DNA of 64,000 nucleotides from an uncultured Ectothiorhodospiraceae bacterium. Lineage in GTDB: Bacteria > Pseudomonadota > Gammaproteobacteria > S012-40. The stretch spans positions 24,367 to 88,366 of the forward strand of contig CALZJE010000008.1 of NCBI GenBank assembly GCA_945787715.1. The letters run 5' to 3'. Both the position numbers and the translations under genes were made by a program. Numbering within the stretch: the first letter of the stretch is position 1; the number at the start of each line of letters is the position of its first letter. Positions 20,307 to 63,936 of this stretch are shown one piece after another. Below the pieces are notes generated by a model. The model did not search any database and was not told where the DNA came from. It saw only the letters and a list, made by a program, of their open reading frames with translations.

Positions 20307-20382
20307 GTCCCCTTCGTCTAGTGGCCTAGGACACCGCCCTTTCACGGCGGTAACAGGGGTTCGAGTCCCCTAGGGGACGCCA
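20307..20382 (+). tRNA. tRNA-Glu (anticodon TTC), copy 2
   Basis: Identical 76-nt sequence to copy 1. The leader is also duplicated (GAAGGTTnAnnATGTCCCC). Confidence 0.9.
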
Positions 20383-28183: not shown

Positions 28184-28243
28184 TGTAATGTTCCCTTTTA
28201 AATACTACATATAAGTATATGGCTAATGTGTAATTTATCAATG

Positions 28244-28251
28244 TTATCGGC
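28244..28251 (-). promoter_or_regulatory. Candidate sigma-28 (FliA) -10 box GCCGATAA upstream of the MEMO1-family gene
   Basis: Perfect 8/8 GCCGATAA on the minus strand, 60 nt upstream of the ATG at 28183. The -35 is weak (GAATTCAT) and overlaps the start of the divergent radical SAM gene. Confidence 0.35.
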
Positions 28252-28262
28252 GAGGTGGTGAG

Positions 28263-29357
28263 ATGAATTCTGAATATCGGGCAACAAAGTATTGGCATAA
28301 GCTTGATGATGGAAGAATACAGTGTGATTTATGTCCGCGATATTGCAAGCTGCACGAAGGCCAGCAGGGATTATGTTTTGTTCGTGCAAACTTTGACGAT
28401 CAAATAGTGAGTACGACTTATGGTCGTTCCAGCGGGTATTGTATTGATCCTATCGAAAAAAAGCCGTTAAATCATTTTTTACCTGGCACACCCGTCCTCT
28501 CATTCGGCACGGCAGGGTGTAATTTAGCGTGTAAATTTTGTCAAAACTGGGATATGAGTAAGTCGCGTGAAATGGATACGCTTGCTGATCAGGCTTCACC
28601 AGAATTAATTGCGCAAGTTGCCGAACAGACCGGCTGCCGAAGTGTTGCGTATACCTACAATGACCCTGTCATATTTTTAGAATATGCTGTTGATACCGCA
28701 ATCGCATGTGCGGAAAAAAATATTAAATCTGTTGCAGTGACTGCGGGTTATATTTGTGAAGAACCCCGCAAAGAATTTTTTAAACACATGGATGCTGCCA
28801 ATATTGACCTAAAGGCGTTTACTGAACGTTTTTACCATAAAATCACTGGTTCACATCTCGGCAATATATTGGATACTTTGCAATATGTAAAACACGAAAC
28901 TAATGTGTGGTTAGAGATAACGAATTTATTAATTCCAGGAGAAAATGATTCCCCCGAAGAGTTGGAAAAAATGACCCAATGGGTTGTCGAAAAACTCGGG
29001 CCTGATGTACCCATGCACTTCACAGCATTTCATCCTGATTGGAAGATGCTAGATTATCCTCCAACCCCCATGAAAACACTCACCCAAGCAAGAGAAATCG
29101 CGATAAAGAACGGTGTTCGATATGTATATACGGGTAATGTTCACGATAAAAAAGGCGAGAGTACATATTGTCACTCATGTGGTGAAAGATTGATTGGTAG
29201 AGACTGGTATGTGTTGAGTGAGTGGAATATGGATAATAATGGCCATTGTCAAAAATGTGGGACTAAATGTAGCGGTGTATTTGAGAATCAAATGGGTACA
29301 TGGGGAGCAAAGCGGCAACCTATCAGATTGGCTGATTTCAGAGAGATTGTAGTTTAA
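28263..29357 (+). CDS. AmmeMemoRadiSam system radical SAM enzyme (PFL-activase-like)
   Basis: CNLACKFC is a CxxxCxxC radical SAM cluster motif. An additional N-terminal Cys cluster (CDLCPRYC) is present. GAGGTGG Shine-Dalgarno before the ATG. Confidence 0.85.
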   Translation: MNSEYRATKYWHKLDDGRIQCDLCPRYCKLHEGQQGLCFVRANFDDQIVSTTYGRSSGYCIDPIEKKPLNHFLPGTPVLSFGTAGCNLACKFCQNWDMSKSREMDTLADQASPELIAQVAEQTGCRSVAYTYNDPVIFLEYAVDTAIACAEKNIKSVAVTAGYICEEPRKEFFKHMDAANIDLKAFTERFYHKITGSHLGNILDTLQYVKHETNVWLEITNLLIPGENDSPEELEKMTQWVVEKLGPDVPMHFTAFHPDWKMLDYPPTPMKTLTQAREIAIKNGVRYVYTGNVHDKKGESTYCHSCGERLIGRDWYVLSEWNMDNNGHCQKCGTKCSGVFENQMGTWGAKRQPIRLADFREIVV

Positions 29358-43597: not shown

Positions 43598-43761
43598 TTT
43601 GTAGCTATACCAATTTACTGCTTTGATTATTCTATTTCTTTGATTATAAAGAGTAATTATTGACTTCCATGGAAAATGACATTAATAAATAAATATTAAA
43701 AAAGTTTAAGCTAATGCTTGACAGTAAAGTCTCAATGAGTAAAATAGCGCGCTCATTACAG

Positions 43762-43836
43762 GCGGGAATAGCTCAGTGGTAGAGCACAACCTTGCCAAGG
43801 TTGGGGTCGCGAGTTCGAGCCTCGTTTCCCGCTCCA
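43762..43836 (+). tRNA. tRNA-Gly (anticodon GCC)
   Basis: GCGGGAATAGCTCAGTGGTAGAGCACAACCTTGCCAAGGTTG...TCCA. Same position as glyW in E. coli. Confidence 0.9.
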
Positions 43837-43947
43837 AATTCTAGAGCCTCGGCTGTACAGTCGGGGTTTTTTAATTCTTAAAGTATGACTGAATAAATAA
43901 CAAATGATTCTGTTATTGAAGATTCTGTTATTATAGTAACGAGCATT

Positions 43948-44021
43948 GGCTGGGTGGCAGAGTGGTGATGCAGCGGCCTGCAAAGCCGTCAACAGCGGTT
44001 CGATTCCGCTCCTAGCCTCCA
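43948..44021 (+). tRNA. tRNA-Cys (anticodon GCA)
   Basis: 74 nt. Anticodon loop CTGCAAA. Acceptor stem GGCTGGG/CCTAGCC with one G-U pair. Confidence 0.85.
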
Positions 44022-44081
44022 TACAATTTGTATGTTGTGATTCTGACGCTTGGCAGCGTAGAATGTTAAAGCCATACCCTA

Positions 44082-44168
44082 GCCCGGGTGGCGAAATTGG
44101 TAGACGCAAGGGACTTAAAATCCCTCGAGGGAAACCTCGTGCCGGTTCGATTCCGGCCCCGGGCACCA
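44082..44168 (+). tRNA. tRNA-Leu (anticodon TAA), with long variable arm
   Basis: 87 nt. GCCCGGGTGGCGAAATTGGTAGACGCAAGGGACTTAAAATCCC...CACCA. Confidence 0.9.
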
Positions 44169-44454
44169 TCTTTTATCACTACAAATCCTTTTTTTCAAAT
44201 ACACATAATCGTTTATTTTTTTGATTATACCCTGTAAATTCTTCGTGTAATCTTGCATCTAGCGTGTTTATAAGTATTACCTGTATGATCCTGGTATTAG
44301 CTAACGTCTCTATTCAAATGTAAGTCGTTTTTCTATTCATCCCTAGTATTCATCCTTAGTACGACAGGCGCCTGACCGTTGTTTGGAAACAGACGACGTT
44401 TGCTTGATATTTTTAAGCTAAACTATCAAGCTAATATTCTATATCTATGTTCAC

Positions 44455-46413: not shown

Positions 46414-46635
46414 TCGTTATTTGTGCAAAAACAAAGCAAATATTGATTGTGTTCATTATATTCAATCCGTAAAATTGAGTTTCTCTGGCGATATTGCCAT
46501 TTCCTTGAATGGATAAATAATATCTCTAAAATCCTGGAGGATTCAGGATGAGAATACTGAAAATATAAGCTGGAATCCCAATTATTCATCTCTAAACGGC
46601 AATGCCCGAAAGCTGTGTATAAAATAAATATTATT

Positions 46636-49600
46636 ATGAAAATCAAAACAATAAACTTGAGTGCCACACTATTCATCGCATTGATTTCGCTGATAAGCTG
46701 TAGCAGCGAAAACAATAAAGTTCCAGCAAAGAACGACAACCCCGCGTTTTCAAGCAAAAAAAATAACTTTATTCCTGCTGGAATTTCTGTAACAACAAAG
46801 AATGGTGTGGCAGAACTTTCTTGGCCAGAGTTTCCGGATGCAACGGCTTATCAATTATATTGGTCTACCTCTGCTGTAACTGATATTAAAACAGCGGAAA
46901 AAGTTAAACTTAGCTCACCGTTTTATCGTCATGAAAATATTATAAATGATGTTAATTACTATTATACCTATTCCGTAGTGATAAATGGCGTTGAAAGTTT
47001 ATACTCAAATGAAGTTACAATAACAGCGCTTTCTCCTCCAGTGGATGCTCCTACAGACGTGAAAATTATTCCTGGTGATGAGCGATTAACATTAATTTGG
47101 ACAGCGTCTAATAATAGTAATCTACCCAAAACAGATTTACTTTATCATGTGTATTGGAATACATCGGGTAATGTCACAAAAGATGATGAAAAATTAGTAG
47201 CTTCTGCGTCACCTGCTGTGCATCTTGGGCTTAACAATGGGGTGCAATATTACTATCGAATAGCCGCCGTTATCGATAGCCTCGAAGGAGGGTTGTCCAA
47301 TGAAGTTTCTTCTGCTCCACATACCCCGACGCTATTCGCACCTCTCAACGTTGTTGTTACAGCGGGTGTAAGTGAAAATCTGCTTGAGTGGCAAGCCGTC
47401 GAATTTGCAGACTCTTATTCGGTATATTGGAATACTTCAGGTGAAGTAGGATTGTCTGATCAGTTCTTTGAAGTATCAGAGCCAGTATTTACCCAAAAAA
47501 ACTTACGTAATGGTAATACATATTTTTATCGAGTAATGGCCCATAACTCATCTTTCAATAGTTCATTTTCAAGAGAAGTATCAGCCAGGCCAGCGACAGC
47601 GTTACCAGGCACCCCGCAAAGAATTTCCGTGGTTGCTGGCGTAGAGAAAGCTACAATAAATTGGAGTGCGGTGGAGAACGCCATACTTTATAACTTATAT
47701 TGGTATACCAATGGCGCCGTGACCAACGTTAATCCCAATGTGATCTCGCCTTTTAATCATAATAATTTGTCCTCGGATTTGGAAGTCAATTATCGAATAT
47801 CAGCCGTTGTAAATGGTGTTGAAGGTTTACCCTCCGCGCAAGTAACGGTTAAACCATTGCCACAGCCTGCTGCCGCACCTGCTGGAGTTGTTATTACCAA
47901 TTCTCAATCTCAAGGCGTTTTACTTACTTGGGAGCCGGATGAATCAGCAATTGCATATAACCTATATTGGAATACTACAGGAGACGTTACTACTGAAGAT
48001 GAAGTGATAAAAAATGTAACATCTCCTTACGCACATGTTGACGCAGAAAATGGCAAAACATATTTCTACATGATAACTTCCGTCAATAATGAAGGTGAAA
48101 GTTTGCCATCTAATGTCATTAAAGTAACCTTGGCGCCGAATGCCCCAAATGATATTAGGGCAGAAATAAATGAGAACGCTATCGGGCTTCAATGGGATGA
48201 GGTTAGTGGAGCAAAAAATTATCATCTTTATTGGTCGACGTCACCAGATATTGCCATTAAAGAACGTAATCATATTCCTACGGTCAACCCTGGATTTACC
48301 CATATTGACCTTGCTTATGGTCAAAAGTATTACTACATCATCACATCTGAAAACGAAGCGGGAGAGAGTGTAGGTTCCCAAGAGCTTGTTGTTAAGACTG
48401 ATGAAAAAACAATAATACCAGTAGCAGCGCCGACAGATATATCTGTATCTGTAGTGGCTAATGACATAGTGCTGAATTGGTCTGAAGTTCTCTATGCTAC
48501 ATCATATAAAATGTATCTCTCACCAAGTCCTATTATTTCCATTGATGGCTTGGATGGTATTCCAATAGAAGCTACTGAATATGTTCATCAATCGCCTGTT
48601 GTTAATCAACAATATTATTATCGCATTAGTAGTATCGGTTCTTCAGGAGATAGTACTGTTTCGGAGCAAGTGACAGCAGTTATCGAAGATAAATTAATAT
48701 CTGATGCATTGAAATTGATACCTGATCAAACATTCCGAAATTGCATTAGTTCAATGGCTTCTGAACATCAATGGATCAATGCCAGTGAAGTTTCATATTT
48801 GGAATGCAGCTCTGGTGAAGGTGGCTTTATTCAAAGTCTTGATGGTATTCATCAATTCCTATTCGTGACGGAGTTTACCTTTTTTGGGGGCAAAATACAA
48901 AATCTCGATGCTTTTTCGGGACTTTCATTTCCTGCATTAACACGTATCCAATTGGTGAATAATGGCATTGAGAATATTACTGGTCTTGGGGAGATAATAG
49001 CCCCTAATCTTTCTTATTTAATATTAGATCAAAATAAAATATCAGACTTGAATCCACTTTCTTCACTATCAAGTTTAATTGAACTATCTGTGTCTCAAAA
49101 CCAGGTGGTTGATGTCTCTCCAGCATCAAATTTAACAGCGCTTCGGAAGTTGGATTTCCATGCTAATAAGATAGGCGGAGTTAATATAGGCAATCTAAAT
49201 TCTTTGCTTCCATTAACATCGAGCGATACGTTTGAATATTTTAATGTCGATCAGAATATAGGTGTTGATTGTGCGGAATTAGAAATGGTACTTCATTCTC
49301 TTGGTGGCATAAAGATACCTGATTCTCCAATAAACGATATTAACTGTTCGGTAACTGAGAGCTCTCTACCGTTATCGCCAAAAAACATAGTCGCTAGAGC
49401 TGGAGCTGATTTTGTTCAGTTTCTTTGGGATGAATCATTAGGAGCAACTTCCTACACTGTATATTGGTCAAATGAATTCATTGGTTCTAGTTCTGGTTCT
49501 GGTGCTGAGGTGTTTGAGTTTCCTGAAGTTACACATGATTTTGTTCATCAACAACTGCAGAGTGGTTTGCCTCACTATTATCAAATATCAGCGAGTAATG

Positions 49601-50610
49601 CGAATGGTGAAAGTATCCAAACAAGTGAAATTTCTCTGACACCACTGCCTGTGTTGTTATCAGAAATGACAGTGCCAGATCCTGGCTTTCAAGAATGTGT
49701 CAACGATATTATCGATACAGGACCGTGGGTATATGCGCATGAAGTGGAAGTATTAAATTGCAGCCTTAGCAGTAATACATCGATTAATGATCTAACCGGA
49801 ATTCATCTTTTTTCAGGTGTTAGAAGTATCGATTTATCAGGGAAGGGTTTAGAGACTCTGGATGGATTTGACTTTTCTTACTTTCCTGACCTTGTTTCAT
49901 TGAATTTATATGGTAACAGTATTTATAGCGCTGAAGCACTTTCAACATCTATTGTGCCGCAGTTAAAGGATCTCGATATAAGTTCAAATAATCAACTACT
50001 AAGTGTAAAGCCACTAAATAGCCTGACTTCATTAACGTCGCTTAAACTAGTTTGGAATAGCTTAGTTGATTTACGAGAAATACCAGACTTGGTGAATCTT
50101 GAAGACCTCGATATATCTTCAATGTCATTTTTTAGTGGAATTAGTTTAAATATCGATGTGCTGAGTAACTATTCAAAATTGGTGGAATTGGATATGTCAT
50201 TTAATGTCATTACTGATTATTCAAGCTTGTCTGATTTAACCAACTTAGAACGATTGCTTCTTATAAATAATAAAATAGATGATATAAGTTTTATCACAAT
50301 ACCTTCATCGGTTCTTGAACTGAATTTATCTAATAATGAAATTAGTGATGTTACGCCATTATCAGGAATGACTCAGTTACAGTTTCTCAATCTTAATCGG
50401 AATGTTATTGGCAATACACCGGAAGAGAATATTATCAAATTAAACGCACTAACTTCTGCGTCTGAAATCTCCTTGATTGGGAATAGAAGTATGGAATGTA
50501 ATGAGCTTATACAATTAATATCGGATTTAGAAGTTGGTGTAGTAAAATTTAGTGATGGAAGTAGAGTTGTACCTGAACAAAACCTAGATTGCACTATTTA
50601 TAATCCCTAA
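46636..50610 (+). CDS. Giant lipoprotein: about 9 FN3-like repeats followed by internalin-type leucine-rich repeats
   Basis: Lipobox LISCS. Start taken at the ATG at 46636. Repeating modules of about 95 aa have a YxLYWxTS core. C-terminal half has 22-aa LRRs (LSYLILDQNKISDLNPLSSLSSLIELSVSQNQVVDVSP...). Confidence 0.65.
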   Translation: MKIKTINLSATLFIALISLISCSSENNKVPAKNDNPAFSSKKNNFIPAGISVTTKNGVAELSWPEFPDATAYQLYWSTSAVTDIKTAEKVKLSSPFYRHENIINDVNYYYTYSVVINGVESLYSNEVTITALSPPVDAPTDVKIIPGDERLTLIWTASNNSNLPKTDLLYHVYWNTSGNVTKDDEKLVASASPAVHLGLNNGVQYYYRIAAVIDSLEGGLSNEVSSAPHTPTLFAPLNVVVTAGVSENLLEWQAVEFADSYSVYWNTSGEVGLSDQFFEVSEPVFTQKNLRNGNTYFYRVMAHNSSFNSSFSREVSARPATALPGTPQRISVVAGVEKATINWSAVENAILYNLYWYTNGAVTNVNPNVISPFNHNNLSSDLEVNYRISAVVNGVEGLPSAQVTVKPLPQPAAAPAGVVITNSQSQGVLLTWEPDESAIAYNLYWNTTGDVTTEDEVIKNVTSPYAHVDAENGKTYFYMITSVNNEGESLPSNVIKVTLAPNAPNDIRAEINENAIGLQWDEVSGAKNYHLYWSTSPDIAIKERNHIPTVNPGFTHIDLAYGQKYYYIITSENEAGESVGSQELVVKTDEKTIIPVAAPTDISVSVVANDIVLNWSEVLYATSYKMYLSPSPIISIDGLDGIPIEATEYVHQSPVVNQQYYYRISSIGSSGDSTVSEQVTAVIEDKLISDALKLIPDQTFRNCISSMASEHQWINASEVSYLECSSGEGGFIQSLDGIHQFLFVTEFTFFGGKIQNLDAFSGLSFPALTRIQLVNNGIENITGLGEIIAPNLSYLILDQNKISDLNPLSSLSSLIELSVSQNQVVDVSPASNLTALRKLDFHANKIGGVNIGNLNSLLPLTSSDTFEYFNVDQNIGVDCAELEMVLHSLGGIKIPDSPINDINCSVTESSLPLSPKNIVARAGADFVQFLWDESLGATSYTVYWSNEFIGSSSGSGAEVFEFPEVTHDFVHQQLQSGLPHYYQISASNANGESIQTSEISLTPLPVLLSEMTVPDPGFQECVNDIIDTGPWVYAHEVEVLNCSLSSNTSINDLTGIHLFSGVRSIDLSGKGLETLDGFDFSYFPDLVSLNLYGNSIYSAEALSTSIVPQLKDLDISSNNQLLSVKPLNSLTSLTSLKLVWNSLVDLREIPDLVNLEDLDISSMSFFSGISLNIDVLSNYSKLVELDMSFNVITDYSSLSDLTNLERLLLINNKIDDISFITIPSSVLELNLSNNEISDVTPLSGMTQLQFLNLNRNVIGNTPEENIIKLNALTSASEISLIGNRSMECNELIQLISDLEVGVVKFSDGSRVVPEQNLDCTIYNP

Positions 50611-50683: not shown

Positions 50684-52315
50684 TTAGAATGCCAACTCCA
50701 TTCTAGCGCCAAAGGAAAGATTCTGGTTTGTTGTATAGCGTTGATCAAGAATAGTTTCATACATGATGAATGCGTTGAATCCGTGTGGTAATACTGCGGA
50801 TATACCAATGTTTGTTCTGAAATAATCTAAGTCAGGCCTATCAGTTTGAAAACTAAAACTAGTTGCATTAGCATCATCTACAAAGCTGCCTTTGATCGAA
50901 TCTTTTCCTGTACTAAATTCATGTACCCATGAAATATCGATTTGTGGAATCAAAACTCCCCATGTTTGACTAATAGGGTAGCTTAATTGAGAGCCAAGTT
51001 CACCGAGTGTTGATGCTAGATTTCGTTTATCGATAACAAGGTTTAATTCGTTTGCACCGGTTTCTTTATAACTTTCAATCGTTGAGTTCAAATGGTCAAC
51101 TTTACCGGTGAGGGTAACACTAAAGCCATTTTTCTGGTGGATGACATAACCTGCGCCAAGACTTATCGCATTTGATGAGCTTTTTGTATCACCTGTTGCT
51201 CTTTCACTGATACTGTTACCTGCTGCGTCGTAATTAATATTTCTTCGTGATGAATAGTCGTTGTTTCCGCGGGTGATTATGATGTCAACATATAAACTGT
51301 CAGCCAAATAATAAGTTCCGTATGCTGTTAAACTTAGTCCTTGTGCGTCAAGCGATCCACCGTTATCAGATATATCCAGGTCAGTATTTGCATAGCCTGT
51401 TGCTACACCTAAAATCATTTGGTGTGTTAATCGATAATCAGCACCAATTGTTAAACCTTGAGAGTCATAATTAAAACCGTCTTCTAACAATGTGTTCGAC
51501 CTACTACCTTCGCCAATATTGCCACTGGCAAATATTCCCAGCTTATTGCTCAATAATCCAAATGGTTCAGTGCCATCGCTGTTTTCACTATTATTGAAAA
51601 ATAGATGCGATTTATTCTTTTGGGATTGGTGCTTTTCGAGGAAGTTGAATGATAAATCACCCAAAGAGATTCCTCGACTTCCTTGGCGTAGCGCTGACAA
51701 GCGGCTACCAATATTTCTCAATTGATTTTGTGCGAATGTATTTCCCACTTTATTTTGTGTAGCGACTTCTTCTGGCGCAATTTCTCGCATGGCCTTTTCA
51801 ACTTCCTCTGGAGTTGCTTGACTTAATTCATTACAACGGATTGAGAAAGATTCATTGCTGGTTGATTGAGATGCACATATATCTTCAAGTACAGATGCAA
51901 TACTTTTTTCGATAGGGATCGATGTTTCTGTTGGAAGAGCGATAATTGAGCCAACAGTGATACTTATCACCGCATTAACTATTTCATTTTGATCGCCCGT
52001 AACAGAGTACGTAATTTGATCTACTCCTGTGTAATCTGTGTTTGGCGTATAAATAATGGAAAGTTGCTCCTCACTAACACTCGCTGTTCCATTGGAAGGA
52101 GGGGACGAAATTGAAATAGTAAGCGGACCGTCATTATCGATAGCTGAGATGCTACTACTTAAATCAATCGTAATGTTATTGTTTTGATTAGTATTCACAA
52201 ATATATTTGATGCAGTTAGTGCAAAACAATTATTAGCGATAAAAAAGAAGATCATCAGAAAAAAGAAGTTTCTAGCGGTTATTAAATGAGCAATTCGGTT
52301 TTTGTTGTGTAGCAT
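50684..52315 (-). CDS. Autotransporter (type Va) outer-membrane protein with a short passenger
   Basis: Signal peptide. C-terminal beta-barrel translocator domain ending in an aromatic residue (...GARMELAF) with alternating hydrophobic beta-strands. Confidence 0.7.
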   Translation of the reverse strand: MLHNKNRIAHLITARNFFFLMIFFFIANNCFALTASNIFVNTNQNNNITIDLSSSISAIDNDGPLTISISSPPSNGTASVSEEQLSIIYTPNTDYTGVDQITYSVTGDQNEIVNAVISITVGSIIALPTETSIPIEKSIASVLEDICASQSTSNESFSIRCNELSQATPEEVEKAMREIAPEEVATQNKVGNTFAQNQLRNIGSRLSALRQGSRGISLGDLSFNFLEKHQSQKNKSHLFFNNSENSDGTEPFGLLSNKLGIFASGNIGEGSRSNTLLEDGFNYDSQGLTIGADYRLTHQMILGVATGYANTDLDISDNGGSLDAQGLSLTAYGTYYLADSLYVDIIITRGNNDYSSRRNINYDAAGNSISERATGDTKSSSNAISLGAGYVIHQKNGFSVTLTGKVDHLNSTIESYKETGANELNLVIDKRNLASTLGELGSQLSYPISQTWGVLIPQIDISWVHEFSTGKDSIKGSFVDDANATSFSFQTDRPDLDYFRTNIGISAVLPHGFNAFIMYETILDQRYTTNQNLSFGARMELAF

Positions 52316-55730: not shown

Positions 55731-57239
55731 TTAACCGATAAGTTTATTAATCCGCGGAATCAATTCTTCAATTTTTATGGGCTTCTCAATAAAGTCTGCA
55801 GCGCCTATTCCAAGTACATGCTCTCTGGTCGTAACCTTGTTATCTCCCGTAATAATGATCACCGGAACAGGCTCTGTTTTAGGGTTTTGTTTTATACGTT
55901 CAAGAATTTTTATTCCGTCAATATCAGGTAGCAAAACATCTAATATTAATAAATCTGGTAACGGACCTTGTGTTAACATCGTGAGTGCAGTATATCCATC
56001 AGGGACATCAAAAACTTCAACATCTAGGTCTTCTAATACACGTCTCACATATTGAACTATCGCTTGATCATCATCCACAACCATGATTTTTGGACGTATT
56101 TCAGGAAATTTAGCAATCATAGTCGTTTTTACCTCTGGTTCCGATTCTATGATTAAATTACCATTGTGTGCCAGCAATATCTCATTGCAGTGAGGTATTC
56201 CGATACCTGAGCCTTTTTCACCAGCAGTTCCTAGGGTAGATGTTTTTGTTTCCAGTGAAATTAAGTCAGTTATTTTTTCTTTGGGAATTCCCACTCCTGT
56301 ATCTTCAACAGCAACTGTAGATCCATCAGGAGAATAAATGCGTATTATTGAATTTTTATGGCTAAATTTAATGGCGTTACTTAAAAAGTTTTGTATGAGT
56401 TGATTTATCAGAACTTTATCTGAGTAGATGCGTGATTTTTTATTGACTTCATTTTTAATTTCAATTTCTTTTTCTTCTGCCATGAAGCTAAGTCGGTTAA
56501 CGACTTCATTAACGATGTAATAAAGATTGTTGAATGTACGTATTGGTTTAATGAATCCTTGTTGCAAGCGACTGAGGTCTAATAAATCTTCAACCATATT
56601 AAGTAATTGTTTTGATGAATTGAGAGCCAATGTAGTAAGTTTATCTTTTTCTTCCATTGGAATTGAAATATTCTCTTCTTTATTTGTTGCTAATGTCAAT
56701 GCACCAATAACAGCACCTAGAGGGTTTCTTAAATCGTGAGATACTAACGATACGTATTTGTCCTTTAATGCGGTTGCCATTTCGGCTTGTTCTTTTGCTA
56801 CTCTGAGCTGAGTTTCTTGTTGAAATCTGTGGTATGCATAGTTAGATTGGCGAATTAGTAGTTTGGGATATGTTTCATCTTTAAAGAGAAAGTTTTGCGC
56901 GCCCAATGCAATCGCTTCCATTCCCAGCTTCTCATCATTAATACCAGTTAACACAACTATTGCGATGTCATCACATTTTTTTCGGAAGTTTGTAATCGTC
57001 TCAAGTCCGGATGAATCCGATAGATTAAGATCTAGAAGTACGATATCAAAACTATTTTTTTTCACAGGGTTTGATAATGTGGAAAACGCTTCTTTAAGGC
57101 TTACTACATGTGTAATTTTCGCTTGGCCAAATTCTACGGGTGCACTGGAGAAAACAGAATTAACAATCATTGCGGATGATTGGCTGTCTTCTACTAATAA
57201 TACGTTTTTGACGGAAAAATAGGCAGTATCTGTTAACAT
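55731..57239 (-). CDS. Hybrid sensor histidine kinase with REC-HisKA-HATPase-REC architecture (no TM)
   Basis: N-terminal receiver (LLVEDS...LDLNLSDSSG), H-box LVSHDLRNPLGAV, G-boxes (DTGVGIP, GSGIGI), and a C-terminal receiver (MVVDDD...LLILDVLLPDIDG). Confidence 0.85.
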   Translation of the reverse strand: MLTDTAYFSVKNVLLVEDSQSSAMIVNSVFSSAPVEFGQAKITHVVSLKEAFSTLSNPVKKNSFDIVLLDLNLSDSSGLETITNFRKKCDDIAIVVLTGINDEKLGMEAIALGAQNFLFKDETYPKLLIRQSNYAYHRFQQETQLRVAKEQAEMATALKDKYVSLVSHDLRNPLGAVIGALTLATNKEENISIPMEEKDKLTTLALNSSKQLLNMVEDLLDLSRLQQGFIKPIRTFNNLYYIVNEVVNRLSFMAEEKEIEIKNEVNKKSRIYSDKVLINQLIQNFLSNAIKFSHKNSIIRIYSPDGSTVAVEDTGVGIPKEKITDLISLETKTSTLGTAGEKGSGIGIPHCNEILLAHNGNLIIESEPEVKTTMIAKFPEIRPKIMVVDDDQAIVQYVRRVLEDLDVEVFDVPDGYTALTMLTQGPLPDLLILDVLLPDIDGIKILERIKQNPKTEPVPVIIITGDNKVTTREHVLGIGAADFIEKPIKIEELIPRINKLIG

Positions 57240-57464: not shown

Positions 57465-58547
57465 TTAATAAACCAGCTCAGCGGTAAACATAAAAATGTC
57501 ACCCTCTAGGCCGCTGTTTTGGCTATAGCGTTCATACTTCACTTGAAATTGTGATCGACCTAGATATCGTGGTGTATAACCCAACTTAAGCCCATATAAG
57601 CGGGATGTAAAAGCCTTTAAGGAGCTGGATGATGTTAAATATTGCTCCATTCCAGTATAAGACGATTTCAAGAAGTCTGCTGAGTTTTGCTCATAAAATC
57701 GTATTTCGCCGCGGAGTTGCAAGCGTTTGCTTAATTTTTGATAGGCTTTTACCTCAATAGTATTTGAACTTAGCGCCCAATCATCTTGATAAAAACGATA
57801 ACCAAAATGTAAGGCGGTTTGTGTTGCTAGCCAATGAGCGTAACGAATTCCTACTGCTTGTCGAATCCGGTTGGAGGGTAAAAACTCATCAAAGATTAAA
57901 TTGTTTTCCAGCACAATCTGTCGATTCCCAGTGCTCAAATAACCTTTATTATTCTGTAGTGTATAACCCAGCTGCATGATTGAAGTAGGTGATAACACCT
58001 GAGTCAATGCCAGCGAATAATTGTCTACGTCCTTGGACTTTTTATTTTCCATGAATCGACCATTAACGGTATCGAAATTATGTGCATATCCCATACTTAA
58101 TGTTGTATTGCGTCGATTGAAATCTTTGGACAAACCAATGGATGGCGAAAAGGATTCATAATCCTTTTCTATACTTTGCAGGTAACCTGCGTTAAAGGTC
58201 CAGTCTCCTTTAATGTGTGAAATACCTGCCACATATTCCTGGCGGGTATCAACCGATGATTCCAGATCACCAGTGAATTGTGAGGCGCCTGAAATGGAAT
58301 CAATGCCGTCATAGTTTGTTTCAACCCGGTCTACAGTGAACTTGGCGTTAACTGTAGTCTGAAGGGATAAAATATTTTCGTAAGAGAGAATTGGTTTAGT
58401 AATAGTTAAGCCAGGCGTGAGGCTGTAATAGTGGGTCATTAAGCCGACAGTGCTGTCTGCGAACGCAGTCCATTGCATACTTAAGAGCAGTATTACAATA
58501 CCTGTTATGGAATAGCGTCGTCGACGAAATTTTGATAAAACAAACAT
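57465..58547 (-). CDS. DUF3570-like predicted outer-membrane beta-barrel protein
   Basis: Signal peptide (start taken at M10 of the track ORF). About 360 aa with alternating amphipathic strands. Family assigned from size, context and memory. Confidence 0.5.
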   Translation of the reverse strand: MFVLSKFRRRRYSITGIVILLLSMQWTAFADSTVGLMTHYYSLTPGLTITKPILSYENILSLQTTVNAKFTVDRVETNYDGIDSISGASQFTGDLESSVDTRQEYVAGISHIKGDWTFNAGYLQSIEKDYESFSPSIGLSKDFNRRNTTLSMGYAHNFDTVNGRFMENKKSKDVDNYSLALTQVLSPTSIMQLGYTLQNNKGYLSTGNRQIVLENNLIFDEFLPSNRIRQAVGIRYAHWLATQTALHFGYRFYQDDWALSSNTIEVKAYQKLSKRLQLRGEIRFYEQNSADFLKSSYTGMEQYLTSSSSLKAFTSRLYGLKLGYTPRYLGRSQFQVKYERYSQNSGLEGDIFMFTAELVY

Positions 58548-58551
58548 AGAT

Positions 58552-58755
58552 CTAGTTGCAGCCACAACCACCACCGCCTACGCCAAACCCACCTGTAGAG
58601 CCTTCCAGAGAATTCAGAAAGTGTTCTCGCGCGCCAATTTCAACTTTTTCCATATCAAACTGCATTTCCGGTTTGGAAAGGGTTTCGCGCTGAAAAGGTT
58701 GAACAGTTGTGCATGCGCTGATAAATAGTGTTAGAAATAGAATGATTACTTTCAT
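58552..58755 (-). CDS. DUF4266-like small lipoprotein with C-terminal GGGGCGCN tail
   Basis: Lipobox LFISAC. 67 aa from the ATG at 58755, which overlaps the TlpA stop as ATGA. Gly-rich CGC C-terminus. Confidence 0.55.
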   Translation of the reverse strand: MKVIILFLTLFISACTTVQPFQRETLSKPEMQFDMEKVEIGAREHFLNSLEGSTGGFGVGGGGCGCN

Positions 58756-59294
58756 TTTTTCTCTTGCAAAAGGCTTGAAACCTCTTGGCTCCATTTAATG
58801 GTGTCTTTTTCAGAATTAAAACCGTAGTGTTTGTAACGCACAATTCCGTTCTGATCCAGGATATATGATGAAGGCATGGCGACTGCACCAAAGCTCGAAA
58901 CAACATTTGTTTGTGGATCAAATAACACACGGCTTCTAATTTTATATTTTTCTAAAAACTGATTGGCATTTTCTATGTCACGGTCAATATTGATTGCTAA
59001 TACGACTAAGTTATCAAATTTATCCTGCAGTTGATCTAACATGGGCAGTTCTTTGCGGCAAGGAGTGCACCAGCTCGCCCAAAAATTTATGAAAACAATC
59101 TTGTCTTTAAAGTCGTTGAGTTGGTAACTATTATTATCTGCACCCTCAAGTTTAAAAAAAGGTGCTGGCTGGCCCACCGCAGCTGCGAGAGTGACGGTAG
59201 GCCAGGCCAGACAAAGTATCAGAAGTGTTTTCGTTAAGCGGGAGGAGCGAAATATCTTCTGGGGAGGGGAAGTAATTGTCATATTTACATCCAT
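58752..59294 (-). CDS. TlpA/ResA-like periplasmic thiol:disulfide oxidoreductase
   Basis: Signal peptide. FINFWASWCTPCRKELP thioredoxin CxxC motif. Confidence 0.8.
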   Translation of the reverse strand: MDVNMTITSPPQKIFRSSRLTKTLLILCLAWPTVTLAAAVGQPAPFFKLEGADNNSYQLNDFKDKIVFINFWASWCTPCRKELPMLDQLQDKFDNLVVLAINIDRDIENANQFLEKYKIRSRVLFDPQTNVVSSFGAVAMPSSYILDQNGIVRYKHYGFNSEKDTIKWSQEVSSLLQEKK

Positions 59295-59296
59295 TA

Positions 59297-60277
59297 TTAA
59301 TTATTTTTGGCGCCTTCAGCGATCCATTGTCGTATCGCTTTATAGTCCGCATCGTCTGTAGATCGCCAGGATGCGCCACCGCCATGTTGGGAGCCATACA
59401 TTGGCGTTGCCAACACCAAGCTGGCATCAGGATTGTTCAGATTAACGATATCTTGAATGCCTTTTTCTGAATTTTCATCTTTCTCAAAAGCGGATAAATC
59501 CAGGCCGCCACCATAAGCATATTTGGTTCCTTTGGGGTATTCAACCCAGGGTCTTGCTTTTTCTGGCAAATGACATGATTTGCAACGATTCTTCAATACC
59601 GGCATAACATGCTTTTTGAAACTCACACCGGTTTCCGGATAACTTGATAAGGTCGAAAAACCACTTGCCAACAAAGCCCCTCGGCTGTTCAATGGTGCGT
59701 GATGCATACCACAACTCATGCGAGAGGTTGTTGAGCTGCTACCACCAACACCGGGTATTGTCATCATCGCTGTAATCAAATCATCATTTTTCACCCAAGC
59801 TTTATATCGCCATGTGCTAGAACTGGCTCTATTCTCTGCTTCACTTTTATCCGGATTCCAGGCTTGAGGGTCCGAAGCAATTTTACTGTAAGTGAAAAAA
59901 TTACCCGAATCATTGGTGGTCATGCTGATTACATTGCCTTGCACATCTTCTAGAATAATTTCAGCACCGACCAATGGTTCACGAGCTGCTCTGTCTTTGT
60001 ACAATGTACCAGCCATGGTAAACACAGATTCATGAGCTTTTCCGGTTTCTGAATGACAGATTCCACAGTCTTCACCAGTCATATGAAATTCATTTCCGGC
60101 AGTTTCATCTGCTTCGGCTTCATCGCTCAATTCACCATTATCCTTGCCAGCCACATGACCACTTGGTGCTTCAGCCCACTGCATTCCTTTGGGGGTGAAT
60201 ACTCTATCTGTGGCACTGAGCTGACCAAAAAATAAAATACTGCTGATTAAAAATGTTAATTTTGTGCTGAGTCGCAT
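59297..60277 (-). CDS. Secreted dihaem c-type cytochrome-like protein
   Basis: Signal peptide. Two CxxCH motifs (CGICH, CKSCH). Third atypical CGMHH site. Central beta-rich region (GAEIILEDVQGNVISMTTNDSGNFF). Confidence 0.55.
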   Translation of the reverse strand: MRLSTKLTFLISSILFFGQLSATDRVFTPKGMQWAEAPSGHVAGKDNGELSDEAEADETAGNEFHMTGEDCGICHSETGKAHESVFTMAGTLYKDRAAREPLVGAEIILEDVQGNVISMTTNDSGNFFTYSKIASDPQAWNPDKSEAENRASSSTWRYKAWVKNDDLITAMMTIPGVGGSSSTTSRMSCGMHHAPLNSRGALLASGFSTLSSYPETGVSFKKHVMPVLKNRCKSCHLPEKARPWVEYPKGTKYAYGGGLDLSAFEKDENSEKGIQDIVNLNNPDASLVLATPMYGSQHGGGASWRSTDDADYKAIRQWIAEGAKNN

Positions 60278-60301
60278 TATCTTTCTCCCGATGTTCTTTT
60301 T

Positions 60302-61762
60302 TTAATGATGGCCTGCATGTGGGTCTTCTGTTGAGACATGTGATTCATGATCGTGATCAGCAATAACCACGTCACTGCCGCCGTGTAAGTCATTCAACGC
60401 CACGCCACCATCATGTTTGTTGGAGCCTGGCGAACCTGCAAAAACACTGTGTTCGTCACTCGCCACAAAAGCACCATATTCAGCACTGGATATATTCTGA
60501 GGGAAAGCTTTAACAGCTTCTGCCACAGTTAATTCTTTTGTGGCATCTTCAACCAATAAATCTTCACCATGGAATAGATATACGTTACCAGTGATCAGTG
60601 ATTTTCCATCTGCTCCGCCATCAGCCCATTTAGCACCCACGAGTATGTCATGCGTTCCGTTGCCATCTACATCGGGTAGAACTTTTATTGATGAGGCAAA
60701 TTTATCATTAGCAGTTGCACCTACAACTTTAACTAATCGATAATCGATATTGTCTTCAAAATATTCTGACGGAAGATCATCTCCACCTTTGAAAATATAA
60801 AAACTGCCGGTGTTATCATAAACCGTTGGAGCACTGCGACGAGGATTGCCTACAATAATATCGCCAAAACCGTCGCCGTTCATATCGCCTGCAAAAGCAA
60901 TCGTATATCCGAATCCGGAGCCGCCATGAGCCCCTCCATCGCTACGTATTTTTACATCAGGTGTTGGATCAGTTTCAATCTTGGTTTTAAGATTTGTGCC
61001 ACCATAATATATAAACACTTTGGCATGACCATCCATTATAATATCAGCAATCCCATCGCCGTTAACATCACCGGTATCCACTGCCTTACCGACACTGGCA
61101 TTGATCTTGTCACCCTGAATAATTACATCAGGTTGGTCTGAAAGTGTAGCTCCGCCAAAAAACACGTAAACAGCACCGGCTTGGAACTCTTCATGGAAAG
61201 TATAAGGTGCAGTAACGATGGCATCATTGATCCCGTCTCCGTTCACATCACCACCGGAAATAGCAAAACCAAATTTATCAAATGAATTTTCGCCTTTGAG
61301 TTTCGCCAGCAGATTAGGTGGGTTTTTACCACCTTGGTAGACATAGACGGCACCACTGATACTTGCTTGTCCTTCTGCATTGATTGCCCCTATGGCGAAG
61401 TCATCAATAGTATCACCATTGACATCACCCAAATTGGCGAACGAAAATCCGTAATAATCACCCGCATTTTCACCGGGTAAATAACTATTGATAGTTGCTG
61501 CTGGATTATTTGCATAATCAAGATAAATCAATGCTGCCCCAGATTTTTCACTGGAGGGTTTTGCTTCTGGTGCACCAACGATGAGATCCATCTTTCCATC
61601 TGCATTAATATCGATAATATCACCAGATGTTCCGGTGCGACTGGTTGTTAAATTAATAACACTGGATTTTGCCAGCGGATTACCATCTTCATTACTAGAA
61701 TCACTGTTGCAGGCAACGATAAGACTCGATAGCAAAATGCTTACACTGACTTGCTTGTACAC
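60302..61762 (-). CDS. FG-GAP repeat (integrin-alpha-like beta-propeller) lipoprotein with a His-rich C-terminal tail
   Basis: Lipobox LIVAC. Six or seven repeats of D/N-x-D/N-G-D-G-x-x-D calcium-binding FG-GAP loops (GDVNGDGINDAIV, GDMNGDGFGDIIV, ...). C-terminus ADHDHESHVSTEDPHAGHH. Confidence 0.7.
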   Translation of the reverse strand: MYKQVSVSILLSSLIVACNSDSSNEDGNPLAKSSVINLTTSRTGTSGDIIDINADGKMDLIVGAPEAKPSSEKSGAALIYLDYANNPAATINSYLPGENAGDYYGFSFANLGDVNGDTIDDFAIGAINAEGQASISGAVYVYQGGKNPPNLLAKLKGENSFDKFGFAISGGDVNGDGINDAIVTAPYTFHEEFQAGAVYVFFGGATLSDQPDVIIQGDKINASVGKAVDTGDVNGDGIADIIMDGHAKVFIYYGGTNLKTKIETDPTPDVKIRSDGGAHGGSGFGYTIAFAGDMNGDGFGDIIVGNPRRSAPTVYDNTGSFYIFKGGDDLPSEYFEDNIDYRLVKVVGATANDKFASSIKVLPDVDGNGTHDILVGAKWADGGADGKSLITGNVYLFHGEDLLVEDATKELTVAEAVKAFPQNISSAEYGAFVASDEHSVFAGSPGSNKHDGGVALNDLHGGSDVVIADHDHESHVSTEDPHAGHH

Positions 61763-62394
61763 GAATACCCCCTTTGCTATTTTGTTTAGAAATCATCCTG
61801 GAGCCTGCCCGAGAATAGAAGGACTCCTGGTTTTGGATTAAAAGTATTCTATTCTCAGAACAATAGGTTGTCGTGTGGCATATTGCCGCGCGTGACAATT
61901 TGCCGCATGTGTTTGTGCATTGAGCTCAATAACGCGAAAACTTATATCGTGTACAAACTTCAAGGTTATTAATCGTTAAATTTTGACTGAAACGTTTATT
62001 GAAAAAGAAGACTATTATTACGCCAGCAAAATGTTGATCACATTTAGATTGGAGTGAAATCAACAATAAATGCTAACAACGATTTTTCGCCAAAGGCTAA
62101 TATTTATGTATGGTTAGTATAAATGTTATATGCTTGAGCTGGTATTTATTTTAGAAATCAAGTTGTCGCTATTGCTGCTGATCCAGCAAAATCCAAGGGC
62201 AATCTTTCATATACAATGCTTGGGTAGATGAATGGTGCTGGATTTTGTGATTTAGATAAGGATATGGAGCTCAAAATATCAATTGATGTTTGATCAATAT
62301 CTTAAGTCGTTAAAGTTACTTTCAGTTGCTGGGCAAGTGTGCAATTGAACGCTAGAGTCCTCTAAGTACAACACTATTAGCTTGCTTGCCTCAT

Positions 62395-63936
62395 CTAAAA
62401 TGGAAATAAAGTTAAATCTACTGCAATAAAAAAATGTGCTCGCATGACAGAAATATCTCTATCACTTTCATCCTCCAATAGTTTTGGTGTGGCTGACACA
62501 CCAAAACCGATAATGCTTGGGCCGTTTAGATGAAATGTTCCATAAATCCCTGGTGATAGTAACTGCATAAGTTTGACTTTTTCCTGTGAGTCATAATCGC
62601 TAGATCGCCACGCGACGACCGTACCTAAATCGATAGCAGACAAAAAAACGCCTCCAGAGCGAAACCATTTATTGCCATCAGTAATGCCCATGCTCCTTGC
62701 TAACCAATTATTTTCTGGAAAAGGAATACTCATGTGTAAACCAAACGGTACAAAAATACTTCTCACTAAGCTTTTAGAGGCGTCATCAGATTGTCTATTC
62801 GTATAACGCTCCATTCCTATTGCTAGTCCAGCAAATGCTGTAAATGACGTCATTTTTCGTCTGAACTTCATTTTATAGCTACCGACAGGGGCAGCGGCGG
62901 CTTGAATAACTGTTGCTACTTCTTGTGTAGATTGTGCACTAGCAAGTTCTGTTATAAATGGAATTGAGGCCTTCACTACGTTCATGGATTTTTTATCAAA
63001 ATGAGGTGAAACAGAGGTTGAATTCAATATTTCCAAGCCTGCCATTGCCATTTCCACTCGATCATGTGTTAAATATGCAGAGCCAAAGCGAAATATTTCT
63101 CTTACCTTCATGGCTTTACCCGCTAACTCTGAGAGTTGCTCAGGAGTAGCATTAAATTTTAAGATGTTATCGTGTTGATAACGATTAAAGCGGCGGGTGA
63201 TATCAGCTATTAGAGTCAGCGTTTCTTCCAAGGCAACAGTGCGTGCAATGATACTTTGTTTTGGGTCAATAATTTTATTTTGAAAATCTGTTGATTCACC
63301 TTTCGCACTACGAGTCTGTTGAATAATTTCCACAACATGTGGAAAAAAATGTGAAATTTCACTTCCTAATGCTTCCAGTTCTCGATCCTCCAGGCATTGA
63401 TCCTTGGATGCACTACATACTATTGAAAGGCGAGGTTTACTATTTTTGCGGAATAAAAGTTGCTCATCTAATGTTAATAATGCACCTGCTAATTGGAATC
63501 CATGAGTTATATTGTCACTTTGTAGCGAAGTATTAGCCTCTACAGCGTGAATAATGACAGCTGCTGTTCGCATAAGTGCAACCATGTTTTCACATTCCTC
63601 ATCATCACCACAAAAATTCAGCATAGTAACCGCACGTATAAAATCTAATGCTGGTAATCCTCTGCGTGTTTCACGATAAGCTGCAAGAGCCACCCGAAAC
63701 CCATTGACACTTACATTATTGTGAATAAATTGCTTTTTTTGGGCATAAAATTCATCGTCTGGATTTTTTTCGTAAAATTTATAACTTAAATACGCATGGC
63801 GGAAGGCAACATCTGGAATGTTTTCTAGATCAATCTTGGCTGCTGTCCTTAAATATGAACCTACAGAAGTTAATGAAAAACCGTAAATTTGTGATTTAAA
63901 TACTTCACATAAATTTTCAAAATATTCCTTAACCAA
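62395..63936 (-). CDS. Large hypothetical protein (at least 513 aa), probably 5'-truncated by the window edge
   Basis: Long uninterrupted ORF. The track start is a TTG, and the frame stays open to base 64000. No recognisable domain. Confidence 0.4.
   Translation of the reverse strand: MVKEYFENLCEVFKSQIYGFSLTSVGSYLRTAAKIDLENIPDVAFRHAYLSYKFYEKNPDDEFYAQKKQFIHNNVSVNGFRVALAAYRETRRGLPALDFIRAVTMLNFCGDDEECENMVALMRTAAVIIHAVEANTSLQSDNITHGFQLAGALLTLDEQLLFRKNSKPRLSIVCSASKDQCLEDRELEALGSEISHFFPHVVEIIQQTRSAKGESTDFQNKIIDPKQSIIARTVALEETLTLIADITRRFNRYQHDNILKFNATPEQLSELAGKAMKVREIFRFGSAYLTHDRVEMAMAGLEILNSTSVSPHFDKKSMNVVKASIPFITELASAQSTQEVATVIQAAAAPVGSYKMKFRRKMTSFTAFAGLAIGMERYTNRQSDDASKSLVRSIFVPFGLHMSIPFPENNWLARSMGITDGNKWFRSGGVFLSAIDLGTVVAWRSSDYDSQEKVKLMQLLSPGIYGTFHLNGPSIIGFGVSATPKLLEDESDRDISVMRAHFFIAVDLTLFPF

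Follow-up and report, generated by a model that had tools for sequence, protein, structure and literature searches.

ApbE flavinylates the DUF3570 protein of Chlorobium luteolum at two [S/T]GA[S/T] motifs, and the study that reported this also described 227 gene clusters combining ApbE and DUF3570 with a thioredoxin-like protein, DUF4266 and DsbD, together with 316 more that have no DsbD (Meheust et al., 2021, eLife; PMC8238504). The authors proposed that the C-terminal CxC of DUF4266 may switch between redox states, and called the role of the DUF3570 system 'uncertain', with iron assimilation a possibility since VIT1 occurs in 25 of the clusters (PMC8238504). A later preprint places the TlpA/DUF4266/DUF3570 trio beside a JDVT-CTERM surface protein in a few species (Haft, 2023). 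Here we describe an operon in which this trio is joined to a second pair of genes, encoding an FG-GAP beta-propeller lipoprotein and a dihaem c-type cytochrome. It lies on a 64,000-nucleotide stretch of DNA (hereafter the window) from an uncultured Ectothiorhodospiraceae bacterium (contig CALZJE010000008.1, positions 24,367 to 88,366). Our preferred reading, to which we assign a probability of roughly one half, is that the operon specifies a RegA-controlled redox and metal-handling device of the cell envelope, with copper favoured over iron as the metal.

The arrangement is best explained as one operon of five minus-strand open reading frames (ORFs), with a promoter that bears a tandem RegA/PrrA/RegR-type operator and with two separable extracytoplasmic modules joined end to end. 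We refer to the FG-GAP and cytochrome genes as module A, or the pair, and to the remaining three genes as module B. The features, with lengths in nucleotides (nt) or amino acids (aa), are as follows.

61868-61907, minus strand: tandem RegR/RegA-type operator, two 15-bp imperfect palindromes GYGRCA-N3-TGYCRC plus a half-site ACGACA
61846-61874, minus strand: sigma-70 promoter predicted by consensus scan, with -35 ACGACA at 61874-61869, a spacer of 17 nt and -10 TAGAAT at 61851-61846
60302-61762, minus strand: FG-GAP beta-propeller lipoprotein, 486 aa, GTG start, lipobox IVAC, tail ...DHDHESHVSTEDPHAGHH
59297-60277, minus strand: secreted dihaem c-type cytochrome, 326 aa, with a signal peptide, from a family without a Pfam model
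58752-59294, minus strand: TlpA/ResA-like periplasmic thiol:disulfide oxidoreductase, 180 aa, active site WCTPC
58552-58755, minus strand: DUF4266 mini-lipoprotein, 67 aa, lipobox ISAC, Gly-rich tail ending GGGGCGCN
57465-58547, minus strand: outer-membrane beta-barrel of Pfam family DUF3570, 360 aa from the ATG at 58547

Read from the sequence, the operon spans 61762-57465 and its junctions measure 24, 2, -4 and 4 nt in order. The FG-GAP stop at 60302 is separated by 24 nt from the cytochrome ATG at 60277, and the cytochrome stop at 59297 by 2 nt from the TlpA ATG at 59294. The TlpA stop TGA (58754-58752) then overlaps the mini-lipoprotein ATG (58755-58753) in an ATGA, and the mini-lipoprotein stop at 58552 lies 4 nt from the barrel ATG at 58547. 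The barrel gene could also start at a GTG at 58574, in which case it would overlap the mini-lipoprotein gene. A purine-rich ribosome-binding site (AAAGGGGG, GGGAGA) is found 5′ of every start; the FG-GAP and DUF4266 proteins carry lipoboxes and the remaining three have signal peptides. Since the same gene order recurs in other contigs with unrelated flanks, the arrangement is not due to chance. An earlier note on this DNA had already recognised five packed minus-strand genes with ATGA coupling and had given each a domain assignment; all five ORFs are where it placed them, and Pfam matches together with sequence features bear out every assignment. The note had proposed Pfam and gene-neighbourhood searches, and would have been contradicted by a lack of DUF3570 or DUF4266 matches, by a lack of co-occurrence in other genomes or by a barrel of a characterised porin or usher family. 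Instead, DUF3570, DUF4266, AhpC-TSA/Redoxin and FG-GAP were all matched (the cytochrome matched no family above cut-off), the genes co-occur elsewhere in the same order, and the barrel is neither a characterised porin nor an usher.

Module B (TlpA, DUF4266 and DUF3570) is the system that Meheust et al. (2021) linked to flavinylation, and the earlier note's view that the DUF3570/DUF4266 pair has no assigned function was thus outdated, flavinylation and the gene cluster having been described in that year (PMC8238504). The mini-lipoprotein matches DUF4266 (PF14086) with an E-value of 1.5e-17 and 64.7 bits, against a cut-off of 27, and has the family's features including the C-terminal CxC; the C-terminus GGCGC[NG] is kept in all seven of the DUF4266 homologs inspected. 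The thioredoxin matches the Pfam families AhpC-TSA (3.5e-27) and Redoxin (1.6e-24), with Thioredoxin_8 also passing, and its best NCBIfam matches fall below their equivalog cut-offs (ResA 98 bits against 170, TlpA 76 against 230, DsbE 75 against 123). This gene is present in canonical DUF3570 clusters without a cytochrome (loci L007 and L008), and missing from L004, L005 and L013 and from most loci that have the pair alone. It is therefore dispensable in those three close relatives of the window.

The barrel protein matches DUF3570 (PF12094) at 2.2e-38 and 132.6 bits (cut-off 25), covering profile positions 116-397 of 427. Its AlphaFold2 model has 16 strands and a mean predicted local distance difference test (pLDDT) score of 88.8, and is thus modelled with confidence. 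The protein has the features of an outer-membrane barrel and ends in ...AELVY. Foldseek returned BcsC, OccK, OmpG and PelB at a probability of 1.00, with template modelling (TM) scores of at most 0.57 and identities of at most 13%; because these matches in the PDB are generic only, the barrel does not belong to a characterised porin or usher family. A single consensus flavinylation motif, D-S-I-S86-G-A-S89, is situated between strands 3 and 4, within the only long low-confidence loop of the model (residues 78-97). Because both termini of the barrel are predicted to be periplasmic, this loop would be on the extracellular or lumen side.

Homologous barrels form two groups, which differ in gene context.

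Canonical barrels (L007, L008), at most 30% identical to the window barrel: TlpA-DUF4266-DUF3570-(NusG_II)-ApbE, or DUF3570-ApbE-TlpA-DUF4266-DsbD
The window's clade (L001, L002, L004, L005/L006, L013), at least 50% identical in the contigs examined: FG-GAP, a protein of 326-339 aa, TlpA (optional), DUF4266, DUF3570

DsbD is present in the canonical cluster L008, and the flanks of the window's clade are unrelated between loci. Barrels of the canonical kind, like those linked to ApbE, have both motifs, as in YDSVSGAS...TQTTSGAS. The window's clade shows VDRVETNY at the first position, without an acceptor residue, and site 1 has been lost clade-wide; the window barrel therefore carries one motif (S86-G-A-S89) where an ApbE substrate of the canonical kind has two. 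The second position is kept in this ApbE-less clade as D-x-[IV]-S-[GS]-A-[ST] in a loop that is otherwise variable. It reads DSISGAS in the window, with SGAS in about 60% of the clade and SSAS in the remainder. It is at this second position that the window barrel would be flavinylated.

Turning to module A, the FG-GAP protein matches PF01839 with six repeats (2.5e-34, 117 bits), and six calcium-type DxNxDGxxD loops are visible in its sequence. The conserved columns of the family are Gly, Asp, Phe-Gly and Gly-Ala-Pro, all structural only. Its members differ at the C-terminus: in 25 of 52 a Gly/Ser-rich linker is tipped by ...DCH, ...HVH, ...HQH or ...AGHH, and six further members have a Cys close to the C-terminus. 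The His-rich tail pointed out in the earlier note is indeed present, but it is one form of this wider feature of a Gly linker with a Cys/His tip. The flexible Cys/His-tipped arm mirrors the GGGGCGCN tail of DUF4266. Assignment of the FG-GAP protein to the JDVT-CTERM class was considered and rejected, the window protein having no C-terminal transmembrane sorting signal.

The partner of the FG-GAP protein is predicted to be a c-type cytochrome from its two CxxCH motifs and its export signal. No Pfam family, including the cytochrome models, was matched above cut-off, and nearly all of its 224 homologs have no Pfam domain either. At the 50% identity level an exhaustive profile search gave only about 10 full-length representatives, and it found the two domains separately in about 2,250 other proteins. 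Across 23 diverse homologs both CxxCH motifs (C71/C74/H75 and C232/C235/H236) and an RMSCxMHH loop (R186-H193) are invariant, as are H41, D46, H65, M119, Y158, W161 and H298. The AlphaFold2 model (pLDDT 75) begins with an N-terminal CxxCH and a transthyretin-like beta-sandwich; the invariant loop that follows is disordered, and the C-terminal haem domain is well modelled. The latter (residues about 213-326) resembles FoxE and PccH in fold and profile: FoxE was the best match in the fold search, with PccH second among cytochromes, and comparison of the profile with PDB sequences gave E-values of 0.012 for PccH and 0.66 for FoxE. A plain sequence search against the PDB gave nothing significant.

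To describe the distribution of the pair, one genome per GTDB species was scanned, giving 65 loci, and local neighbourhoods were annotated with hidden Markov models. The pair is found in Gammaproteobacteria, Acidiferrobacteraceae, Thiotrichaceae, Nitrospinota, Nitrospirota, Gallionellaceae, Geobacteraceae (including the isolate Pelotalea chapellei DSM 13688), Anaeromyxobacter, Myxococcota and Desulfobulbaceae. The FG-GAP gene is directly 5′ of the cytochrome gene in 48 of the 48 loci that have upstream DNA; 40 of these passed a strict distance test and the other eight are artefacts of ORF boundaries or frameshifts, with FG-GAP matches directly upstream. The pair is thus near-obligate and has not been described previously: the literature on FG-GAP proteins with cytochromes or iron oxidation yielded nothing on it, and a paper that names both FG-GAP and cytochromes concerns hydrazine-synthase homologs flanking a CRTAC1-type FG-GAP gene, a different system.

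The pair occurs without DUF4266 and DUF3570 (for example L011 and L012, genome named Dehalogenimonas), and in 10 of 52 loci the DUF3570 module is joined to it, in either order. Four of these ten also have ApbE. Three, from Gallionellaceae/Nitrosomonadales (L021, L029 and L036), have the full set FG-GAP-CYT-TlpA-DUF4266-DUF3570-ApbE-DsbD, where CYT is the cytochrome; the fourth, L069, is ordered ApbE-TlpA-DUF4266-DUF3570-FG-GAP-CYT. It follows that the window operon is a fusion of two modules, in a compact form, and that the two have joined repeatedly; the earlier note had regarded the five genes as a single module.

Two further kinds of neighbour accompany the pair. In six Nitrospirota loci (L024, L032, L038, L055, L056 and L068) an FtrD-like protein of 150 aa is encoded directly 3′ of the dihaem gene, and a multihaem cytochrome of the c7/c554 type lies nearby in only four of them (L038, L055, L056 and L068); these genes are a lineage-specific extension of iron-uptake or electron-transfer character. 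The other neighbour is a second family of outer-membrane barrels, of about 340 aa and ending in ...YRF or ...WNF, one member of which gave a weak match to Phenol_MetA_deg. These proteins have a conserved Cys motif straight after the signal peptide, for example AAGLCCQLS, and adjoin the pair in 17 loci (L014, L015, L022, L025, L026, L028, L032, L033, L035, L038, L040, L044, L048, L055, L056, L065 and L068). The Cys-motif barrel looks like a counterpart of DUF4266 and DUF3570 with the Cys motif built into the barrel itself.

The operator offers a separate line of evidence. Exact matches to its pattern on the plus strand are found at 61875-61889 and 61892-61906 and nowhere else in the window, and the half-site ACGACA coincides with the predicted -35. 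When orthologous upstream regions are aligned, the -35 and the -10 AATAGAAT both prove to be conserved, as does the operator footprint upstream of FG-GAP in the window, L010, L001 and L002. The 63 FG-GAP loci, about 1 Mb in all, contain 23 exact operator sites; 16 of these are no more than 400 nt upstream of FG-GAP and are spread over 13 loci from Gamma- and Betaproteobacteria to Myxococcota. The RegR box of Bradyrhizobium is GNGRCRTTNNGNCGC as quoted in PMC5506826. Against the box in this quoted form, both window sites agree at 10 of the 11 specified positions and one L036 site at all 11, and the placement of the operator near the promoter is that expected of a RegR/RegA/PrrA regulon.

A metagenome scan for the tandem operator gave at least 120 stretches among the matches listed, in which the following genes are found 3′ of the operator.

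At least 33 loci: TonB-dependent receptors
At least 20 loci: ActS/PrrB/RegB-type histidine kinase, then an ActR/PrrA/RegA-type regulator (Response_reg + HTH_8), always the first genes
At least 6 loci: Csp1 copper-storage proteins
At least 6 loci, plus at least 2 with the barrel alone: Cys-motif outer-membrane barrel, then TlpA
At least 6 loci: PA4780-type RIO kinases

The metagenome loci with the order operator, barrel, TlpA are L083, L084, L111, L147, L172 and L197. The 30-bp tandem pattern also occurs beside genes for the phage terminase large subunit in at least seven metagenome loci, including L099; these matches are probably unrelated and were treated as such. In L004, a RegB/RegA-type kinase and regulator pair directly follows the DUF3570 gene. 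Because of this pair, of the operator-linked RegB/RegA pairs and of the match to the RegR box, the operon is very probably controlled by a redox-responsive two-component system of the RegB/RegA type encoded elsewhere in the genome. Two other candidates for its control were rejected. A cytoplasmic hybrid protein (receiver, HisKA, HATPase, receiver) is encoded at 55731-57239 on the minus strand, 225 nt 3′ of the barrel gene with no obvious terminator between, and it has no DNA-binding domain and is not of the RegB type. The best match to a Fur box upstream of the operon reached 12 of 19 positions, which is background level.

The same operator leads to copper in some genomes. In L036 (Gallionellaceae MAG.26) it heads three units, which lie directly 5′ of the seven-gene cluster. 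One is a TonB-dependent receptor operon with a DUF4198-like protein, a NapH-like polyferredoxin and a DsbD_2 protein; the others encode a TonB-dependent copper receptor and a Csp1 copper-storage protein, which score 728 bits (TIGR01778, cut-off 472) and 144 bits (cut-off 100) respectively. Tandem operators precede the TonB receptor set, the copper receptor and the Csp1 gene in L036 (1-8256) and in L122, and copper receptors lie beside the operator in several of the matches listed. This layout suggests that a redox sensor of the RegBA type governs copper uptake and storage in these bacteria. Within the loci of the pair, a Csp1 gene (114 bits) adjoins FG-GAP in Nitrospinota L015, and a YHS-domain protein is encoded directly after the cytochrome in L022, L028 and L070. 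The occurrence of the RegR-type operator before TonB receptors, Csp1 and the Cys-motif barrel with TlpA further suggests an unrecognised link between respiratory redox sensing and metal uptake. Precedents for the individual steps exist: TlpA reduces the copper-ligand cysteines of ScoI and CoxB (PMC6669012), in methanotrophs a dihaem cytochrome is co-transcribed with a Cu(I) protein of the cell surface that copper represses (PMC3912023), and the partner of a TonB-dependent copper importer in Bordetella is a haem protein supporting haem-copper oxidases (PMC13038864). The earlier note was right to see a cell-envelope redox or metal-handling unit here, and its suggestion of 'possibly copper or haem-iron' now has support from independent gene-context evidence.

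Considering these data together, the device may work across the outer membrane as well as at its inner face. Haem in the dihaem cytochrome and flavin on the barrel would hand electrons to a scarce redox-active metal, and the thiol and imidazole tails (CGC of DUF4266; HxH or CH of FG-GAP) would catch the reduced ion and pass it inward, with TlpA keeping the cysteines of the CGC tail reduced. The purpose would be the supply of respiratory metallo-enzymes, with Cu(II) to Cu(I) the favoured reaction and iron second. The parallel modules of Cys-motif barrel and TlpA support the picture of an outer-membrane barrel working with a periplasmic Cys motif and a thioredoxin. This scheme builds on gene structure, protein families, barrel fold, the conservation and modularity of the neighbourhoods, the operator with its companions and the published flavinylation of a homolog; from these we infer that the window barrel itself is flavinylated, in which direction electrons flow, how the proteins touch one another and which metal is involved. 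A more specific version, which we put forward only tentatively, is a metal-reducing and hand-over machine in the outer membrane, controlled by a RegB/RegA system that would sense respiratory status, in which a barrel with covalent flavin on a non-periplasmic loop and with docking tails is fed electrons by the dihaem protein and delivers Cu(I) inward to haem-copper oxidases. If this were true, the machine would be a flavin-based counterpart of the porin-cytochrome conduits, dedicated to copper nutrition.

A number of observations weigh against the preferred reading. The window itself contains no copper genes, and the copper link comes from a minority of distant loci (L036, L015, L022, L028 and L070). 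Among the operator-linked full-length TonB receptors scanned, only two of ten are of the copper type (TIGR01778) and the others are mostly hemin- or siderophore-like, so the idea that these are generally copper receptors had to be rejected. RegA-type regulons are broad and co-regulation is thus no proof of common function. The FG-GAP propeller has no conserved metal ligands, and 21 of its 52 homologs have no Cys/His tail. SSAS replaces SGAS in 9 of 29 clade members. A Pfam scan detected neither ApbE (PF02424) nor DsbD (PF02683)/CcdA among the ORFs of at least 110 aa in the window, and neither gene lies within 10 kb in the close relatives L001, L002, L004 and L005. The module is therefore not 'complete', as the earlier note had it, and because ApbE and DsbD are not encoded in the window, flavinylation and the source of electrons are unproven here. 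The remaining points concern iron: the best fold match of the cytochrome, FoxE, is an iron oxidase, FtrD-like and multihaem neighbours occur in the Nitrospirota loci, and some published DUF3570 clusters include VIT1 iron transporters (PMC8238504).

These last points belong to the case for an iron redox device, engaged in reductive iron assimilation or in Fe(II) oxidation or Fe(III) reduction at the outer membrane, which we regard as possible but rather unlikely. With FoxE as top structural match and PccH second among cytochromes, the family is concentrated in the iron-cycling lineages Gallionella, Geobacteraceae, Anaeromyxobacter, Nitrospirota and Acidiferrobacteraceae, and hemin- and siderophore-type TonB receptors stand behind the same operator. 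VIT1 is present in 25 DUF3570 clusters (PMC8238504), and RegBA governs the Fe(II)-oxidation genes of Acidithiobacillus ferrooxidans (PMC5506826). However, the metal-specific genes that adjoin the cluster are copper genes (an OprC-type receptor, Csp1 and YHS), and a Fur box is lacking upstream. CxC motifs, combinations of Cys, Met and His, and C-terminal His/Cys tips are also more typical of Cu(I) ligands. Alternatively, the operon could be a generic relay without metal cargo, of the type envisaged by Meheust and colleagues, running from a DsbD encoded elsewhere through TlpA and the CxC of DUF4266 to flavin mononucleotide (FMN) on DUF3570 and a surface acceptor, with the pair as a second input or a terminal oxidoreductase. 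For clusters of ApbE, DUF3570, thioredoxin and DUF4266 with or without DsbD this model is the published one (PMC8238504), it agrees with the seven-gene versions that include ApbE and DsbD (L021, L029 and L036), and control of the RegA type suits components of respiratory electron transfer. Yet neither the window nor the surrounding 10 kb in its close relatives encodes ApbE or DsbD, TlpA is dispensable in L004, L005 and L013, and both the Cys/His-tipped tails and the adjacency of copper genes would be left unexplained; we consider such a relay unlikely.

Less credit still can be given to the idea that the barrel in the window's clade is a mere channel or anchor, flavinylation having been lost along with the linkage to ApbE and site 1, and the SGAS/SSAS loop now serving, for example, to contact the pair. 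The lack of ApbE in 64 kb, the clade-wide loss of site 1 and the SSAS variants at site 2 would all fit, but the exact D-x-x-S-G-A-S persists in most members within a poorly conserved loop, and ApbE is often encoded elsewhere in the genome, where it serves NQR or RNF. On balance a channel or anchor is very improbable. The thioredoxin's best NCBIfam matches include ResA and DsbE, and L002 encodes SelR (MsrB) a few kb upstream, so it might be supposed that the operon repairs oxidised envelope proteins by reduction, or that the thioredoxin is a ResA/CcmG-like maturation factor for the dihaem protein and the barrel is unrelated. TlpA, however, accompanies DUF4266 and DUF3570 in the cytochrome-less clusters L007 and L008 and is missing from the cytochrome-bearing L004, L005 and L013 and most pair-only loci, and no Msr gene is conserved nearby, which leaves repair or maturation with hardly any likelihood.

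In conclusion, the core trio was known, and what is new is its fusion with the FG-GAP/dihaem pair, a barrel that has a single site and no ApbE linked to it, an operator of the RegR type and the copper context. The DUF3570 system thereby gains testable partners, the pair being present in at least 65 species across many phyla, along with a class of regulator (RegA/PrrA/RegR) and, as candidate substrate, copper or alternatively iron. Should the preferred reading of a copper-handling device hold, bacterial copper acquisition for respiration would gain an outer-membrane step, and the covalent-flavin barrel would be a new kind of redox-active outer-membrane protein alongside the porin-cytochromes. 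Such a step would be of relevance to the iron- and sulfur-cycling bacteria of groundwater and sediments.

Elsewhere in the window, a conserved three-gene stress operon, PrkA/DUF444 (YeaH)/SpoVR (YcgB), occupies 1112-5848 on the minus strand, and at 26815-29357 AMMECR1 and Memo genes (minus strand) adjoin a divergent radical-SAM gene, the known AmmeMemoRadiSam trio. Large surface or secreted proteins are clustered at 21390-21878, 34144-37896, 46615-50610 and 50684-52315; they include an Lcl_C-domain protein, a 1250-aa DUF5122 beta-propeller, a 1331-aa protein with leucine-rich repeats and fn3 domains, and an autotransporter with Ig/cadherin-like domains, and suggest an adhesive or a host- or particle-associated lifestyle. 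Judged by its GltX, which is 69-72% identical to those of Thiotrichales-like MAGs and Methylophaga, the window belongs to an uncultured gammaproteobacterium. Two plus-strand ORFs, 43-1050 (335 aa) and 29579-31999 (806 aa), matched no Pfam family at E ≤ 1e-4. A third, of 513 aa on the minus strand (62395-63936), lies directly upstream of the operon's promoter region and matched none at E ≤ 0.01. There are two tRNA clusters, Ala-Glu-Glu after gltX (19951-20382) and Gly-Cys-Leu after pgsA (43762-44168), the latter overlapped by a 137-aa ORF (43756-44169) that is probably spurious.

Comparison with described systems places the locus closest to the clusters of Meheust et al. (2021). In both, genes for DUF3570, for DUF4266 with its C-terminal CxC and for a thioredoxin-like protein are adjacent, and the barrel carries [S/T]GA[S/T]; distant relatives of the window barrel (L007 and L008) sit in exactly such clusters, and among FG-GAP-linked loci ApbE is kept in L021, L029, L036 and L069, with DsbD in the first three only. 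The differences lie in the missing ApbE and DsbD of the window and its close relatives (within 10 kb), in a barrel that is about 60 aa shorter and has one FMN motif rather than two, and in a thioredoxin of the AhpC-TSA/Redoxin type where the paper's is PF13899. The window module is also fused to an FG-GAP/dihaem pair that is absent from the paper's text; the text of its supplement mentions none of PF01839, FG-GAP, PF12094 or PF14086, although its tables may still list FG-GAP neighbours (PMC8238504). Porin-cytochrome conduits such as MtrAB/PCC and Cyc2 offer a further comparison. The window operon combines a barrel of 16 strands with a cytochrome of only two haems, the proposed cofactor is a covalent flavin on a loop as opposed to an inserted multihaem protein, and Pfam searches of the window proteins gave no match to the Mtr or PCC families; a conduit of that kind is thus not what the window encodes.

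Among cytochromes, the C-terminal haem domain finds its likeness in PccH (PDB 4rlr) and FoxE (PDB 5mab), and as in PccH the CxxCH is N-terminal within the domain. In CorA/CorB and MopE/SACCP of methanotrophs, a surface or outer-membrane-associated metal-binding protein is likewise accompanied by a co-transcribed dihaem c-type cytochrome, and theirs is tied to copper supply (PMC3912023). CorA and MopE are, however, not homologous to the window protein: they are not FG-GAP propellers and they bind Cu(I) through kynurenine. CorB has a BCCP/MauG-type peroxidase fold, in contrast to the sandwich and PccH/FoxE-like domain of the window cytochrome, and for the window operon the tie to copper is putative. 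The TlpA-ScoI-CoxB system of Bradyrhizobium provides a periplasmic CxxC thioredoxin that keeps a vicinal pair of cysteines reduced (PMC6669012), which is the role proposed here for the window's TlpA. The putative substrate in the window differs, being a 67-aa CxC lipoprotein, and so does the thioredoxin, which scores well below the TlpA equivalog (76 bits against 230) and has a cleavable signal peptide and no clear membrane anchor. Yeast Fre1-type enzymes are flavocytochrome metalloreductases. Although CrtA/CrpH, with its haem-dependent PepSY_TM protein, and the putative copper reductase CcoG (PMC13038864) rely on inner-membrane PepSY_TM or polyferredoxin proteins rather than on an outer-membrane barrel with lipoproteins, the concept that they and Fre1 would share with the window operon is the same: electron transfer through haem, flavin or both in the cell envelope, combined with the import of copper for haem-copper oxidases.

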